Shown here: piece after piece, positions 1,456 to 27,876 of the stretch | Numbering within the stretch: position 1 is the first letter of the stretch | How the letters are laid out: each line of letters starts with the position of its first letter | IMG/VR virus record: IMGVR_UViG_3300024308_000033 | Span: 1-51,350 of that record | Reading direction: 5' to 3' (one strand) | DNA from: a virus | Taxonomy: Duplodnaviria > Caudoviricetes | Length of the DNA: 51,350 bases | The notes under the pieces: generated by a model | Database searches by the model: none | Told to the model about the DNA's origin: nothing | The model's input: the letters and a program-made list of their open reading frames with translations, nothing else | Position numbers and translations under genes: made by a program

Positions 1456-1625
1456 GAACCGTCCGGAGGTGGCCAGAGAAGGCCACAGGGAGCCACTCAA
1501 ACACCCCCTATCGCGCAGGGAACCGCAGGGCCAGCCGGTGCTAGAGAACCCCTGAGAACGCCATACAGGGCCGGGGCTGGGCCTTGCTGCAGGCAGTGCA
1601 GAAAAAGCACCCCATGAAGTGCGCA

Positions 1626-1644
1626 GGCGTGGCGGGGAGACGAG
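1626..1644 (+). other. P2-type cohesive end (cos) site GGCGTGGCGGGGAGACGAG
   Basis: 19-mer resembling P2/186 cos (GGCG(A/T)GGCGGGGAAAGCA(C/T)), followed by TGCGCGC and located downstream of the portal gene as in P2. Confidence 0.8.
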
Positions 1645-1742
1645 TGCGCGCACCGGGGACCGGACCATACGCCACCGCCGAGTCGTGTATGGTGCTTGGG
1701 TTGGCAGCCGTCATTGGTCGACAAGCCGGGATCAGATTTGAA

Positions 1743-2003
1743 ATGTCCGAGAGAAAATCGATGGGCGCAGATCAAGCGCAGCGAATAGGTGCAGCTGTCA
1801 CCGAAGCCTTTGCTAAGTGGTCCGCTCCTGCGCGACATTTGAGCGAGCGAATGGAGCCGGTGAATGCCGCGCTGCAGAATTTGAAGGCGCGAATGAGACC
1901 GGTCATTGCCGCGCTGCAGGAAACGGAGCAACGCAGGCTGCACCTTCGACAGCAACTCAAGCGGAAGGGGCGCACTGGTTGGCGTCAGCCACGCCCCCGG
2001 TAG
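1743..2003 (+). CDS. Small basic hypothetical protein (possible moron)
   Basis: Distal part of ORF 1584..2003, whose upstream part overlaps cos. Helical and basic, no recognisable family, start uncertain (1743 or 1761). Confidence 0.35.
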   Translation: MSERKSMGADQAQRIGAAVTEAFAKWSAPARHLSERMEPVNAALQNLKARMRPVIAALQETEQRRLHLRQQLKRKGRTGWRQPRPR

Positions 2004-24062: not shown

Positions 24063-24461
24063 ATGATGATGACCTGGGGCACGTTCGTGTTCTCTCTCTC
24101 CACCGCCGCCTACGGCGAGCTGCAGCGCCAGATGACCTGGCGGCACGCCAGCAGCGACCGCGTGGGCGCCCGCGCAGTCCGGCAGTACGTCGGGCCGGGC
24201 GATGACACCATCAGCCTGCAGGGAACCATCGCCGGCGAGCTGGCCACCGACCTGCAGGTGCTGGACAAGCTGCGCGAGCTGGCCGACCAAGGCAAACCGC
24301 AGGCGCTGGTGGAGGGAACGGGCCGTGTCTACGGTGCCTACCTGCTGACCAGCCTCAGCGAAACGCGACGCGAGCTGTTTAGCGACGGCACGCCGCGCCT
24401 GATCGACTTCCAGATGCAGTTGGAACGCGACGACGACGGCGCAAGCGAGACCATCGCATGA
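24063..24461 (+). CDS. Tail protein U
   Basis: MMMTWGTFVF, QYVGPGDDTISLQG motifs. Confidence 0.92.
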   Translation: MMMTWGTFVFSLSTAAYGELQRQMTWRHASSDRVGARAVRQYVGPGDDTISLQGTIAGELATDLQVLDKLRELADQGKPQALVEGTGRVYGAYLLTSLSETRRELFSDGTPRLIDFQMQLERDDDGASETIA

Positions 24462-25477
24462 GGGCCAGCCCGTACCCGATCCCCGCGTGGCGGGTCGTCC
24501 TCGACGGCGTGGATCTGACCGAACGGCTGGCCCCGCGCCTGCTGGATCTGTCCCTGACCGAAAGCCGTGGCGACGAAGCCGACCAGGTCGATCTGCGCGT
24601 GCACGACCATGACGGCAGGCTGGCCCTGCCTCGCCGGGGCGTCACCCTGCAGGTGGCCATCGGCTACGAAGGCAGTGGCCTGTTCGACAAGGGCACCTTC
24701 AAGGTCGATGACGTAGAACACAGCGGCTCGCCCGACATCATCACGATTCGGGCGCGTTCGGCCGATCTGACCGGCGCGACTCGCCGGCGCCGCGAACGCA
24801 GTTGGCACGACACCACCCTGGGCGACATTCTCAGCGCCATTGCGGGCGAGCATTCGCTGCGCACGTCCGTGGCCGCGGATCTGGCGGGCGTTGCCATTGC
24901 CCACCTCGATCAAGCCAACGAGAGCGACATCAACCTGCTCACGCGCTTGGGCAAGCGCTTCGACGCGGTGGCCACGGTGAAGGCTGGAACGCTGATCTTT
25001 GCGCCCATCGGTGCAGGCACCACCGCCAGCGGCCAGCCGCTGCCTGGCGTGCGGATCACGCGCGCGTCGGGTGACCAGCACCGCTACAGCGTTGCTGACC
25101 GCGAGAAGTTCACTGGCGTTCGCGCGTACTGGGGCGACCGCAAGGCAGCGCGTCGCACGGGCGTGCTGGTGGGCACGTCCGAGAACGAAAAGAAGCTGCA
25201 GGCCACGTATGCCACCGCAGACGAAGCCCGGCAGCACGCCGAGGCCGAGTTCAAGCGTCTGGACCGAGGCACCGCGCAGCTGAGCTACCGGCTCGCTGTT
25301 GGACGCGCCGATATCTACCCGGAGCAGACGGTCAACGTCAGCGGCTTCAAACCGGAGATTGATGGCACCGACTGGCTGGTGGCCAAGGCCACGCATACCA
25401 TCGACGCCAGCGGCGGCTTCGTTACCGCCTTAGAACTTGAACGCGGCGGCGAAGCCAGCGCAGAACCATCGGCTTGA
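24458..25477 (+). CDS. Late control/baseplate hub protein D
   Basis: EADQVDL, GSPDIITIRARSAD and DQANESD motifs. Confidence 0.92.
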   Translation: MRASPYPIPAWRVVLDGVDLTERLAPRLLDLSLTESRGDEADQVDLRVHDHDGRLALPRRGVTLQVAIGYEGSGLFDKGTFKVDDVEHSGSPDIITIRARSADLTGATRRRRERSWHDTTLGDILSAIAGEHSLRTSVAADLAGVAIAHLDQANESDINLLTRLGKRFDAVATVKAGTLIFAPIGAGTTASGQPLPGVRITRASGDQHRYSVADREKFTGVRAYWGDRKAARRTGVLVGTSENEKKLQATYATADEARQHAEAEFKRLDRGTAQLSYRLAVGRADIYPEQTVNVSGFKPEIDGTDWLVAKATHTIDASGGFVTALELERGGEASAEPSA

Positions 25478-25793
25478 GGTAGCGCGTGGCAGCACCCGCG
25501 ATCAGGAACAACGCCGCGTGTGGGAGTGTCGAGCCGCACGCAGCTTCAATGCTCGGGGTTGGGTAGGTTGCCTGCCAGATCGCCAGCGCGATCAACGCAG
25601 TGGACAAAGGGCGCCCCGTTTCCGTGGGCGCCCTTTCTGTTTCGTTCTGTGCGAAGCGGTGATGCTCCGCGTGTGGGCACTGCATCTGCACGTCGCCCGT
25701 AAACACCTGGCCGATCACGGCCCCTTCAAACACGGTCTGACCCTTGCAAACGCACGTAGCCGCACCACGCTCCACACCATCACCGCAACTCAT
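25422..25793 (-). CDS. Small hydrophobic protein downstream of the repressor, sharing a motif with the repressor C-terminus
   Basis: 123-aa ORF co-oriented with the repressor. N-terminal TVFEGAVIGQVFTGDV motif, two hydrophobic stretches and a basic tail. The 3' end overlaps gpD convergently by 56 nt. Confidence 0.55.
   Translation of the reverse strand: MSCGDGVERGAATCVCKGQTVFEGAVIGQVFTGDVQMQCPHAEHHRFAQNETERAPTETGRPLSTALIALAIWQATYPTPSIEAACGSTLPHAALFLIAGAATRYLKPMVLRWLRRRVQVLRR
25606..25645 (+). terminator. Putative intrinsic terminator of the tail operon
   Basis: AAAGGGCGCCC (25606-25616) pairs with GGGCGCCCTTT (25626-25636), followed by a T-rich run. Confidence 0.6.
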
Positions 25794-25874
25794 AATCCAT
25801 CACACCGTATAGCGCGCCACACCGGCGCCTCTTGCGATGTGAGTTAGCGGCCTGAATAGAGCGCGGCGTGAGCG

Positions 25875-26306
25875 TTATCGGCTGGGTTTCTTTGATGCTT
25901 TAGGCGCCTTGACAACAACCTTTTGCCCACGCAGATCCACGTCACCGCTGATCTGCTGGCCGATGCTGGTGTTCTCGAACGAAGTACGGGGCGCTGCCGC
26001 CGGCGTAGCCGCCGCAACGCCACGCAGCGCTGCCATGACGGCGGAGCGTGCCGAAGCCGACGCACCGCGCCACGCATCGAGCAGATCCACGTCGGCCTCG
26101 GCAAGGCGATCACGCCGGCCGACCAGCACATAGGTCACATCGACGCCGAGTTCATCGGCCGCAACGAAGTAGGCGCCACCGGGCAGGTGTGCGTCTTGCT
26201 CGAACAGGATCTGCGTGCGCTTGGCAACACCGCAGGCCAGTCCCATGGCCTCCTGGGTCAGACCCAGCCGCTTCCGTTCTTCTTTCAGGCGAATACCTAC
26301 AGACAC
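25875..26306 (-). CDS. Prophage repressor (XRE/HTH)
   Basis: GTG start at 26306 with a purine-rich SD. VGIRLKEERKRLGLTQE... HTH and LGVDVTYVLVG; divergent from the early operon. Confidence 0.88.
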   Translation of the reverse strand: MSVGIRLKEERKRLGLTQEAMGLACGVAKRTQILFEQDAHLPGGAYFVAADELGVDVTYVLVGRRDRLAEADVDLLDAWRGASASARSAVMAALRGVAAATPAAAPRTSFENTSIGQQISGDVDLRGQKVVVKAPKASKKPSR

Positions 26307-26318
26307 GCAATTTCCCCC

Positions 26319-26347
26319 TTGACAGGTGTAGTTAACTTCACCACCAT
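26319..26347 (+). promoter_or_regulatory. Early promoter with overlapping palindromic operator
   Basis: TTGACA at 26319, 17-bp spacer, CACCAT. The spacer is a near-perfect palindrome GGTGTAGTTAACTTCACC (26325-26342). Confidence 0.6.
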
Positions 26348-26376
26348 TCCGCTTAGAAATACACAGCGGAAACGGA

Positions 26377-26694
26377 ATGAACGCCAAACGACGTACCACT
26401 GCGCTACGCACTGCCGAACAAGCCCGGCAGTGGCTCATCGACAACGGCCTGTCCGTTCCCGCGTTTGCGGAGTTGCATGGACTGGACCGGCACGCCGTCA
26501 ACAACGCCCTGCGCAGCACCAGCAAGTGCCGGATCGGAAAGACCCACGATGCTGCCGTCGCGCTCGGCATGAAGGCCGTCAGTGATTCTCACACAGAATC
26601 ACCCGTTTCCACCCGTATTCGCACGGTCAAGAAGACTGCCGGCAAAGCCCCGGTTAAGTCGAAGGTTGCGAAGAAGGCGCGGGGTAAGGCATGA
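26377..26694 (+). CDS. Cro/Ner-like phage DNA-binding protein
   Basis: RTAEQARQWL..G.SV..FA...GKTHDAAVALGMK pattern; first gene divergent from the repressor; Lys-rich tail. Confidence 0.75.
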   Translation: MNAKRRTTALRTAEQARQWLIDNGLSVPAFAELHGLDRHAVNNALRSTSKCRIGKTHDAAVALGMKAVSDSHTESPVSTRIRTVKKTAGKAPVKSKVAKKARGKA

Positions 26695-27032
26695 GTGCCA
26701 CAGTCGGACAGCGCGCTGTGTTCTGCTGCCCTGCCTGCAATGCCCGGCTGGTGAAGCGCACCAGTGCCCTGCAACACCCGTTCCTGCGTACTGACGCCTA
26801 CGTCTGCCCGAATCCGATGTGTGGTGCTACCTACACCGGCAGTTCGGAACTGACCAACGTGGCCAGCCCCAGCGGCCTCCCCAGCGCTCCAGCCTGCGAG
26901 CTGCCGCCAACACCCAACTACCAGCGAACGATGCTGCAGACGCGCTGGAAGCAGGACCAGGGCGAGCTGCAAACCGACTGGATCGACGCAATCGAATCCT
27001 GTCCACCCGACGGCGATCAGCCCTCGGTCTGA
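26691..27032 (+). CDS. Ogr/Delta-like zinc-finger late activator
   Basis: CPAC...RTS...YVCPNPMCGATY (C4 zinc finger) followed by SPSG. Confidence 0.85.
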   Translation: MSATVGQRAVFCCPACNARLVKRTSALQHPFLRTDAYVCPNPMCGATYTGSSELTNVASPSGLPSAPACELPPTPNYQRTMLQTRWKQDQGELQTDWIDAIESCPPDGDQPSV

Positions 27033-27100: not shown

Positions 27101-27307
27101 GTGATGCGCCACAAGACTCAATTTGACGGCTGGTCCTCGGCAATGGAGCCGAGCTTTGTCACCTCTCCAACGCGTGTCGAGTACGTGTCATATGCGCAGA
27201 AGCAGCGCGACGCCGCCGAGCTTCACGACTTGGTGAAATCCCATATCGCACGTGGCGGCGCCTATGTGGTGCTGCCGTCGCACGCTGCTGCACAGGTGTC
27301 CGCATGA
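27101..27307 (+). CDS. Hypothetical early protein
   Basis: 68-aa ORF with GGGAG SD in the early operon. Confidence 0.55.
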   Translation: MMRHKTQFDGWSSAMEPSFVTSPTRVEYVSYAQKQRDAAELHDLVKSHIARGGAYVVLPSHAAAQVSA

Positions 27308-27354
27308 ACCTGTCCCCAGCTGCAACCAATCCGCACATTTCTACACAGTTCTAC

Positions 27355-27452
27355 TTGACTTCCCCAAGGACGGGGAGCAGGATTTGCCGCAAGGAGCGTA
27401 GAAACTCCGAGTCAACAGCGGTATCCGCGCCCGTCAGCATCGCGGTTTTTTT
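27355..27452 (+). promoter_or_regulatory. Promoter, a1/b1 target boxes and attenuator-like hairpin of a c4-type locus
   Basis: TTGACT-N17-CAGGAT (27355-27383); CGTAGAAAC (27397-27405); GTCAACAG (27411-27418); hairpin CCGCG...CGCGG followed by T7 (27425-27452). Confidence 0.65.
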
Positions 27453-27487
27453 GCGCCTGCTTTTCGTGCGCACCGACGCTTTCCTGC

Positions 27488-27567
27488 GTCGGGAGGGCGG
27501 CAGCTATACAACACCCGCAAGGGGAAAACTGCCCGCCGGACTGTTGACCGGTTTCTACCCTCCCGAC
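27488..27567 (+). ncRNA. c4-like antisense RNA (P1 c4 / P4 CI type)
   Basis: Closing stem GTCGGGAGGG/CCCTCCCGAC and an internal CCC-GCAA-GGG GNRA hairpin. Contains CTGTTGAC (27541-48) and GTTTCTAC (27551-58), complementary to boxes present both upstream and downstream. Confidence 0.8.
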
Positions 27568-27633
27568 ACCCTCGGTGCGTCGCGTAGAAACGTCTCGCCG
27601 AGGTTTCCAATCTCGTCAACAGGAGACGTCTCC

Positions 27634-27876
27634 GTGCCTCACGGTGCCCCTTCCACGCCCGGCAACCCTGCTGCGCGTCAGCTTGCCCTCGCCTTCGGCC
27701 TGATCGCCGACACCCTCGAATGGCCCCACGATGCGTATCAGGCGTTCATTACCCGCCTGCTCGCCGTCGGTGTGTGCCCGCTCGCAGTCACCCTGGGCGA
27801 CGTGCTTGCCGCCTACAACGCCACCTGTGACGCCAACGGCCACGCGCCGGGCACCGACGACAAGGCGGTGCACTGA
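27634..27876 (+). CDS. Small protein probably under c4-type antisense control
   Basis: GTG at 27634 with SD AGGAG overlapping the b2 box (GTCAACAG 27615-22); stop coupled to the next ATG. Confidence 0.65.
   Translation: MPHGAPSTPGNPAARQLALAFGLIADTLEWPHDAYQAFITRLLAVGVCPLAVTLGDVLAAYNATCDANGHAPGTDDKAVH

Follow-up and report, generated by a model that had tools for sequence, protein, structure and literature searches.

Repressors of the XRE type can be bound by the product of a neighbouring gene, as in Bacillus subtilis, where SinI binds SinR through a C-terminal self-association segment that the two proteins share. In prophage lambda, the exclusion genes rexA and rexB are transcribed together with the repressor gene cI, and to our knowledge no motif is shared between cI and the Rex proteins. 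Short motifs that recur in the products of adjacent genes are known from amyloid signalling in bacterial immunity: Bab/Agp of E. coli is an abortive-infection pair that shares a motif of approximately 20 amino acids, BASS11, lies in a prophage defence hotspot and, according to the running text of the preprint, has a motif also reported beside TIR and other immune domains (10.1101/2024.11.07.622273). Here we analysed a window of 51,350 nucleotides, positions 1 to 51,350 of the IMG/VR virus record IMGVR_UViG_3300024308_000033 (Caudoviricetes), the content of which is a P2-like (Smp131-like) prophage with 64.5% G+C. In this window the immunity repressor and a small membrane-type protein encoded directly downstream of it (in the following, the partner) carry a similar short motif, the repressor at its C-terminus (the tail) and the partner at its N-terminus (the head). 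Our comparisons, which rest on sequence, lead us to favour, with a probability of roughly 0.55, the reading that tail and head form a co-evolving contact pair, by which the immunity repressor would be coupled to a membrane protein.

The repressor gene (25875-26306, minus strand, GTG start) encodes 143 amino acids, and the partner gene (25422-25793, ATG start, 123 amino acids) follows on the same strand after a spacer of 81 nucleotides (25794-25874). The locus resembles SinR/SinI in that a repressor and its neighbour's product share a short homologous segment; the Sin segment, however, is helical and has a Pfam family, and SinI is soluble, whereas the motif described here looks beta-prone and its carrier would be anchored in the membrane. 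The Sin-type Pfam family gave no match in either the repressor or the partner. As in lambda cI-rexAB, a gene for a membrane protein follows the repressor gene directly and in the same orientation, and its expression in the lysogen is to be expected; the partner showed no sequence relation to RexA or RexB in searches of Pfam, NCBIfam, PHROG and PADLOC. A further likeness is to Bab/Agp and to the NLR/Bell pairs with BASS1-10, in which, in the passages of the two sources at hand, a motif of approximately 20 amino acids occupies the termini of adjacent-gene products, with more likeness within a pair than between pairs, one of the partners targets the membrane and the genes lie in a prophage cargo region (10.1101/2020.01.06.895854; 10.1101/2024.11.07.622273). 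Judged by these published descriptions, the differences are that the protein on the sensor side is here a 143-amino-acid XRE helix-turn-helix (HTH) repressor and there a TPR-GreA/B-C-PIN or NLR sensor, that the partner lacks a Bell domain and has two hydrophobic helices instead, and that the polarity of the motifs is reversed.

The initial annotation of this DNA, made from the letters alone, had proposed that the core of the repressor tail, residues T108-V123 (TSFENTSIGQQISGDV; 25938-25985, minus strand), and the head motif, residues T20-V35 of the partner (TVFEGAVIGQVFTGDV; 25689-25736, minus strand), share 9 of 16 residues, and both the positions and the sequences were borne out. The common form is F-x-x-x-x-I-G-Q-x-x-x-G-D-V, rich in G, Q, S and T. 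The likeness lies beyond chance: BLASTP of the two proteins gave an E value of 1e-4, none of 5000 shuffles of the head reached the observed local score of 53, and hhalign of the family alignments of tail and head matched 21 columns with a probability of 92.6 and an E value of 4.5e-7. When the 1032 six-frame stop-to-stop segments of the window were searched, the best non-self match of the tail profile was the downstream open reading frame (ORF), with 13.0 bits (next 3.8), and that of the head profile was the repressor, with 8.0 bits (next 3.6); no third ORF with the motif was found in the window with the two profiles. Both motifs are the most constrained parts of their proteins. The conserved block of the repressor tail spans residues 106-133 (PRTSFENTSIGQQISGDVDLRGQKVVVK; 25908-25991, minus strand) in 40 unique sequences, and the pairwise ratio of nonsynonymous to synonymous substitutions (dN/dS) is 0.01-0.12 in the tail versus 0.11-0.19 in residues 1-95. 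In the partner, it is 0.00-0.07 for the head motif, 0.14-0.32 for the membrane part, 0.24-0.51 for the linker that holds a hairpin, and 0.52-0.77 for the first 19 codons.

The downstream ORF had at first been regarded as only moderately supported, a doubt that is removed by its distribution and by its codons. Viral contigs scanned with the repressor yielded 51 loci, of which 2 are cut too short; in all 49 Stenotrophomonas-type loci with enough downstream DNA the partner ORF is present, in 43 recognized by the motif pattern and in 6, with variant motifs, on inspection. Its ATG is invariant and is always the third codon following an in-frame TGA; a GTG at codon 21, which some gene callers take as the start, is not conserved as a start. 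Among 41 unique sequences, codons 20-34 are invariant at codon positions 1 and 2 (zero entropy) and vary at the third by 0.6-1.4 bits, with the exception of one invariant Gly codon. The G+C content by codon position (64/54/70) fits that of the neighbouring genes, which that of the other frames does not. A spurious ORF had been suspected because of the internal hairpin and an overlap with the gpD gene; this is ruled out by the variation across codon positions, the dN/dS values and the conserved ATG, and is countered also by a plan that is kept in variants which can no longer be aligned. Likewise, a conserved DNA or RNA element in place of a protein motif was rejected, because variation is confined to third codon positions.

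In the partner, the N-terminal head with its motif is joined by a variable linker to two hydrophobic helices, and a basic helix forms the C-terminal end. AlphaFold2 (AF2) placed helices at residues 40-52, 62-76, 90-105 and 108-122, of which 62-76 and 90-105 are hydrophobic, in agreement with the two hydrophobic segments noticed at the outset, and 108-122 is basic. The C-terminal part exists in several versions that cannot be aligned with one another, all of them with two hydrophobic helices and a basic end. The head would lie in the cytoplasm, anchored in the inner membrane by the two helices. A search with the head profile found 39 clusters among 1.84 billion representatives; two matches to repeat proteins (P0157, P0160) were judged spurious, and the rest are small proteins of 46-167 amino acids, with the motif N-terminal in nearly all of the genuine clusters. 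No family for the partner was found in Pfam, NCBIfam, PHROG or PADLOC, a PDB sequence search gave no match, and ESM Atlas returned only matches below threshold (0.79, 0.76). In Stenotrophomonas phage Smp131, the one named phage of the group that was checked, the partner ORF (112 amino acids; 1622-1960, minus strand) is intact and yet unannotated.

The head motif is flanked by cysteines: Cys3, Cys14, Cys16 and Cys39 are kept in at least 90% of the sequences (window 25671-25793, residues 1-41), the last three of them almost without exception, position 41 is most often His (30 of 41 unique sequences), and many N-termini read MGC or MSC. These cysteines could form a metal site or a redox-sensitive element, and they hint at a folded mini-domain rather than an amyloid segment.

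The evidence that bears most directly on a pairing of tail and head comes from other lineages. It had been suggested to examine whether the motif is conserved and co-varies in both genes, and across lineages each tail was indeed found to fit its cognate head best. The last 50 residues of the repressor were compared with the first 70 residues of ORFs beginning just downstream at 80 genome loci, of which 11 scored 38-70 and every other at most 32. The pair was present in all eight Stenotrophomonas-type genome loci (L103-L110), all of which are among the 11 top scorers. The other three are from Collimonas (L146; tail VDFGNAKIGQSAAGDIVN, head VDFNGANIGQAAAGDVVN, score 70), Serratia (L167; tail VTGSNNRVAGGDYNEGK, head VDGDNNRTAGRDYHEYK, 59) and Herbaspirillum (L140; 47). 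A viral contig outside this set (L102; PIGDIFGRDLV and PVGDVAGRDII) scored 45, and these four scores were reached by only 0-1 of 5000 shuffles. The motifs differ among Collimonas, Serratia, Herbaspirillum and three viral contigs, and each tail still fits the head of its own partner. In a matrix of seven lineages, the total of the cognate assignment was the highest of 5040 permutations, and in 6 of the 7 the cognate pair topped both its row and its column. Since residues identical between tail and head mostly differ in codon (in L146, 13 of 18 residues are identical and only 3 of those 13 use the same codon), the likeness appears to be maintained at the protein level, and a recent duplication or gene conversion is ruled out by this codon usage. 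In a distant member of the family (P0118), the tail NVFTENEIGQVYTGEV is closer in look to the Stenotrophomonas head than to the Stenotrophomonas tail. Correlated changes inside the Stenotrophomonas clade, in which, for example, QQF tails occur with GHV or GAT heads, were not counted as evidence, because shared descent explains them.

Several observations weigh against a contact pair and have to be set beside this matching. The seven lineages of the permutation test were picked after their scores or sequences had been seen, which inflates the test; therefore, loci were also sought through homology to the L102 partner alone, and not through motif similarity. Two new loci were obtained in this way, and both match: L184 has a cognate score of 42 (1 of 5000 shuffles) and L185 one of 36 (59 of 5000), the non-cognate pairs scoring 13 and 23. 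The partner of L185 is homologous to that of L184 and has gained an extra N-terminal segment, which resembles the different tail of its own repressor. A long partner (P0164), used as a single query, found no viral locus. The pair of L121 is not significant (764 of 5000 shuffles). The two Xanthomonas pairs picked by eye fared poorly, L070 being not significant (2407 of 5000) and L082 weak (60 of 5000), and they are the only candidate partners seen by eye among the Xanthomonas-type viral loci examined. At 7 Xanthomonas and 8 Janthinobacterium genome loci, no head-like ORF was found on either strand within 2.5 kb, the best scores in these 15 partnerless loci being 23-37 versus 45-70 where a partner exists. 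A tail that is kept without a partner in so many relatives must have a role of its own, which may be self-association of the repressor. In AF2 monomer models, both motifs are without confident structure, modelled as coil with no confident helix. Expression, for which an RNA-seq check had been proposed, has thin support, limited to the repressor and the first part of the partner gene: in one library with a 94%-identical relative (X1), a single contig of depth 29.6 begins in the 5' part of the cox-like gene, covers the repressor and reaches approximately codon 49 of the partner. It ends some 10 nucleotides short of the partner hairpin, and no contig covers the membrane-coding part; such contigs mark presence in an RNA library and not transcript ends, strand or level. 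Contigs over the gpD/late flank and the ogr flank of the same library have depths of 5.9 and 3.4, respectively. Two raw-read RNA runs (X18, X21) contained zero reads from this phage and are thus no test of expression.

Finally, a lineage-wise matching would also be expected if both motifs were bound by one co-evolving, lineage-specific third protein, for instance an antirepressor or a protease adaptor, for which the partner would be a decoy or co-substrate. A candidate is encoded in the early operon of the window, where the product of 27304-27876 (plus strand) belongs to an anti-repressor-annotated PHROG family (phrog_17048, 7.2e-74); a profile search of the six-frame segments found neither a tail-like nor a head-like motif in it. 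The persistence of the tail in many lineages that have no partner would fit such a binder as well. Furthermore, Smp131 is described, in the passages found in its paper, as inducible by mitomycin C (PMC3931495), although the repressor has no S24 domain, so that some factor must act on the repressor. On the other side, no third ORF of the window resembles the motif, which is still compatible with a binder of different shape. Tail-like heads have been recruited repeatedly and independently onto unrelated membrane proteins directly after the repressor, and for this reason direct pairing is the simpler account; we consider a common third party quite improbable.

The partners belong to unrelated families, and hydrophobic membrane-type segments were seen in every one that was checked for them. 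The Stenotrophomonas partner is a two-helix protein of approximately 125 amino acids, the Serratia partner (L167) has 119 amino acids with a Cys-rich segment (CPCC...CRHC after the head) and a hydrophobic stretch, and the partners of the remaining lineages are proteins of 223-285 amino acids in which a helical region and a single membrane helix are combined with a small C-terminal domain that contains Cys and is faintly similar to DUF1496. The long partners P0162-P0165 carry a precomputed Pfam label, PF27202. The partner genes begin from 2 to approximately 120 nucleotides past the repressor stop; in L185 the two genes overlap as ATGA.

The interval between the repressor and gpD genes is a cargo spot (L011, L014, L021, L036, L039, L048, L076, L077, L083, L086, L097, L098); in the relatives it is occupied by genes for PIN_8 proteins, by one for a TIR protein of the CAP12/Pycsar type and by several more long ORFs. 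At L011 and L014, a separate PIN_8 gene lies behind a shortened partner. At L036, L039 and L048, the head ORF continues in frame and without a stop into a PIN_8 domain, and at L021 it does so into a TIR domain of the CAP12/Pycsar type. Each of these cargo genes, whether PIN_8 or TIR, is equipped with a Shine-Dalgarno-like run and an ATG of its own, there are separate PIN_8 genes, and no fused form was found among the 39 head-bearing clusters, so that fusions of the head to PIN_8 or TIR domains are putative only. In Xanthomonas L083 and L097, PIN_8 occurs with no head-encoding ORF upstream.

Such a cargo spot would be in line with two independent functions, the head having arisen by a partial copy of the repressor 3' end and having been kept for an unrelated reason, and the partner being an ordinary gene of lysogenic conversion or superinfection exclusion that merely sits on the immunity transcript. 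Exclusion genes after repressor genes are commonplace, lambda cI-rexAB being the familiar case, and PIN_8, TIR-like and other genes occupy the same site in relatives. This is nevertheless very unlikely in view of the lineage-specific matching, seen in 6 of 7 lineages and in both further loci at diverged synonymous sites, of a shared motif that is the most constrained part of both proteins, and of unrelated partner families that all bear a head like the tail of their own repressor.

The repressor itself begins with a predicted XRE-type HTH, and residues 70-95 form two further helices; after these come an Ala/Pro/Thr linker, with an AF2 confidence (pLDDT) below 50 at residues 98-107, then the tail motif and finally a basic end. 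Its match to Pfam HTH_3, at 18 bits (E 0.003), is below the cut-off of 23 bits; it matches transcriptional-regulator families of PHROG, and its family profile found only Xre/C2/Cro HTH domains in the PDB (Xre, P22 C2, 434 Cro; best E 2.7e-7). It has the position of a phage repressor in an immunity switch, divergent from a Cox/Cro-like gene. Homologues are XRE proteins of 142-145 amino acids from Stenotrophomonas and Xanthomonas, and the family extends to Xanthomonas and, more remotely, to beta- and gammaproteobacteria. That the repressor has no S24 peptidase domain, as already stated at the outset, was upheld by the Pfam search, which found no Peptidase_S24, and 143 amino acids are also too short for one. 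With the tail as query, a PDB sequence search gave no match and ESM Atlas no usable one. The HTH residues 22-62 occur in the alignment in two sharply distinct versions, for example LACGVAKRTQILFEQDAHLPGGAYFVAADELGVDVTY and VACGVTKRTQIFYEMDSVGASAAYLTAAYELGADIVY, both on otherwise similar repressors bearing the same tail; these are probably two immunity types swapped by recombination. In the deposited Smp131 record (L001, NC_023588; 1622-2463), the repressor is split into two frames of 54 amino acids each, of which only the first is annotated, and the cox-like gene also appears broken, possibly as a result of sequencing errors.

Taking these data together, we infer a physical contact of the two proteins, co-transcription of their genes, the membrane topology of the partner and a functional outcome along the following lines. 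Tail and head are two versions of one short beta-prone motif and would pair with each other, probably as added beta-strands. Carried on a flexible Ala/Pro/Thr linker behind the HTH and the helical body, the tail would have as its first job the self-association of the repressor. The partner would be made from the same strand in the lysogen and be fixed in the inner membrane in such a way that its head faces the cytoplasm; as a mimic of the tail, this head would join the repressor, and the states of repressor and membrane protein would thereby be tied to each other. In the likelier direction, the repressor would restrain a holin-like or otherwise harmful membrane protein, which would act once the repressor is lost or attacked and lead to exclusion or abortive infection. 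In the other direction, the partner would be a membrane-anchored antagonist that withdraws the repressor and favours induction. The plan of two helices with a basic tail and the possible PIN and TIR versions make us lean towards a harmful effector restrained by the repressor; a sensor that withdraws the repressor would suit the long partners, which have a domain on the outside. In plan the partner corresponds to a class II holin, being small, with two transmembrane helices and a C-terminal tail that is basic. No holin family was matched in Pfam or PHROG, and the gene sits between the repressor and gpD genes and not in a lysis cassette with an endolysin.

The initial annotation had interpreted the locus as a homotypic, amyloid-like signalling pair. 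Of this interpretation, the shared-motif pair, its conservation in both genes and the cognate matching have held, and the strict architecture of amyloid signalling has not: a short motif at the termini of adjacent genes and a higher likeness within pairs were found here, but neither an NLR/STAND sensor with an N-terminal motif nor a Bell/HeLo effector with a C-terminal one. An amyloid mechanism of the tail/head pair is possible, and we regard it as rather unlikely. Tail and head would then be one amyloid signalling motif; clustering, release from DNA or attack by an antirepressor would nucleate a cross-beta fold of the tail that templates the heads, whereupon a membrane-damaging effector, or a TIR or PIN effector, would be switched on and the cell killed. 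The genomic signature fits, in that motifs of approximately 20 amino acids made of G/Q/S/T and hydrophobic residues stand at the termini of adjacent genes and are more alike within than between pairs, and Bab/Agp with BASS11 provides a precedent from a proteobacterial prophage defence hotspot, as far as the text of that preprint goes (10.1101/2024.11.07.622273). The four loci at which the head ORF runs in frame into PIN_8 (L036, L039, L048) or TIR (L021) would fit as well, and the disorder of both motifs in the monomer models is what would be expected if they fold only on assembly. Against this, the sensor side is a small XRE HTH repressor and not an NLR/STAND or TPR sensor, the effector has no Bell/HeLo domain, and the polarity is reversed, with the motif at the C-terminus of the sensor and the N-terminus of the effector. 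Moreover, in many relatives the tail is kept although no partner gene lies within 2.5 kb on either side, the cysteines that flank the head could mean a small fold stabilized by metal or disulfides, and the fusions to PIN_8 and TIR are, as said, putative. An abundant constitutive repressor with a prion-like tail would also risk accidental firing.

A more specific form of this proposal, which we hold to be less probable still, makes the repressor the sensor arm of a prion-like, amyloid-templated death switch, a 'guarded repressor' type of abortive infection, in which the tail would nucleate polymerization of the heads on a co-transcribed effector (the holin-like two-helix protein, TIR or PIN). 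If this were true, attack by a competing phage or loss of the repressor would result in membrane damage or in destruction of NAD or RNA, the system would be spread in proteobacterial prophages, and the lineage-specific motifs would insulate the systems from each other.

A perfect 11-bp GC-rich hairpin (25606-25636) can form on both strands within linker codons of the partner (ETERAPTETGRPL); the plus-strand fold has -34.4 kcal/mol (z -4.1) and the minus-strand fold -28.4 kcal/mol (z -4.2). A pattern scan for promoters and terminators did not list it. Because it is succeeded by a U-rich run on the plus strand, it probably serves to terminate the late tail operon, the last gene of which is gpD, from within poorly constrained linker codons of the partner. 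In L009, L020 and L037 the linker is without the hairpin and the membrane part is unchanged. Between the stop of the repressor gene and the ATG of the partner, the spacer contains a small conserved stem (GGCGCC..GGCGC) within a longer possible stem that reaches the bases before the ATG; the fold of 25800-25845 on the minus strand has -21 kcal/mol (z -2.7), and column entropy is low at positions -12 to -7. Translation of the partner could be limited by this fold. The pattern scan detected neither a sigma-70-like promoter nor a terminator in the spacer.

The surroundings are those of a P2-like prophage, and Smp131 is the closest named relative in the phage collection (75.6% nucleotide identity with a 1.5-kb query, window 25300-26800). 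The late tail operon has tape measure, gpU and then gpD as its last genes, and the repressor and partner genes converge on it from the minus strand. The gpD-like tail protein (24458-25477, plus strand; Pfam Phage_GPD, 7.3e-19) is encoded by the last late-operon gene, the end of which is overlapped on the opposite strand by the final 56 nucleotides of the partner ORF. The divergent side upstream of the repressor begins with a Cox/Apl-like HTH gene, the first of the early operon (26377-26694, plus strand; phrog_925 HTH DNA-binding protein, 1e-16), followed by an Ogr/Delta-type zinc-finger late activator (26691-27032, plus strand; Pfam Ogr_Delta, 6.2e-7; phrog_603, 9e-20) and by the anti-repressor-family gene mentioned above. 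Thus the order resembles that of the P2 C and 186 CI regions, where a Cox/Apl-like gene likewise diverges from the repressor and the genes for gpD and Ogr are close by. In contrast to these, no integrase follows the repressor here, and the gene for a membrane protein stands between the repressor and gpD genes; P2 C also does not have the linker and tail of this repressor. In the early/replication region, an ORF at 32102-33088 matches a PHROG family annotated as phosphoadenosine phosphosulfate reductase (1.7e-35).

Our literature search found no paper that describes this repressor-partner pair or joins prophage repressors with amyloid signalling. The running text of the Bab/Agp preprint, as distinct from its figures and supplements, has no mention of repressor, HTH or XRE (10.1101/2024.11.07.622273); that of a 2025 paper on the detection of amyloid signalling motifs, taken in the same way, has none of repressor, HTH, transcription or phage, and a 2026 review treats translational repressors only. 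The passages found in the Smp131 paper describe neither the repressor nor the partner (PMC3931495).

If tail and head do bind each other, the pair would constitute a portable wiring of the lysogeny switch to a membrane protein, in which the repressor carries a peptide handle that is copied by the next gene. Binding would open a route to induction, exclusion or abortive infection that does without RecA-mediated self-cleavage, and it would account for a conserved repressor tail behind a flexible linker. The lineage-specific motifs lend themselves to tests of specificity by swapping heads and tails. Should the contact be amyloid-like, amyloid signalling would be extended from dedicated immune sensors to a transcription factor and to common Gram-negative prophages; should it be an ordinary peptide contact, the partner would still represent a new class of repressor partner.

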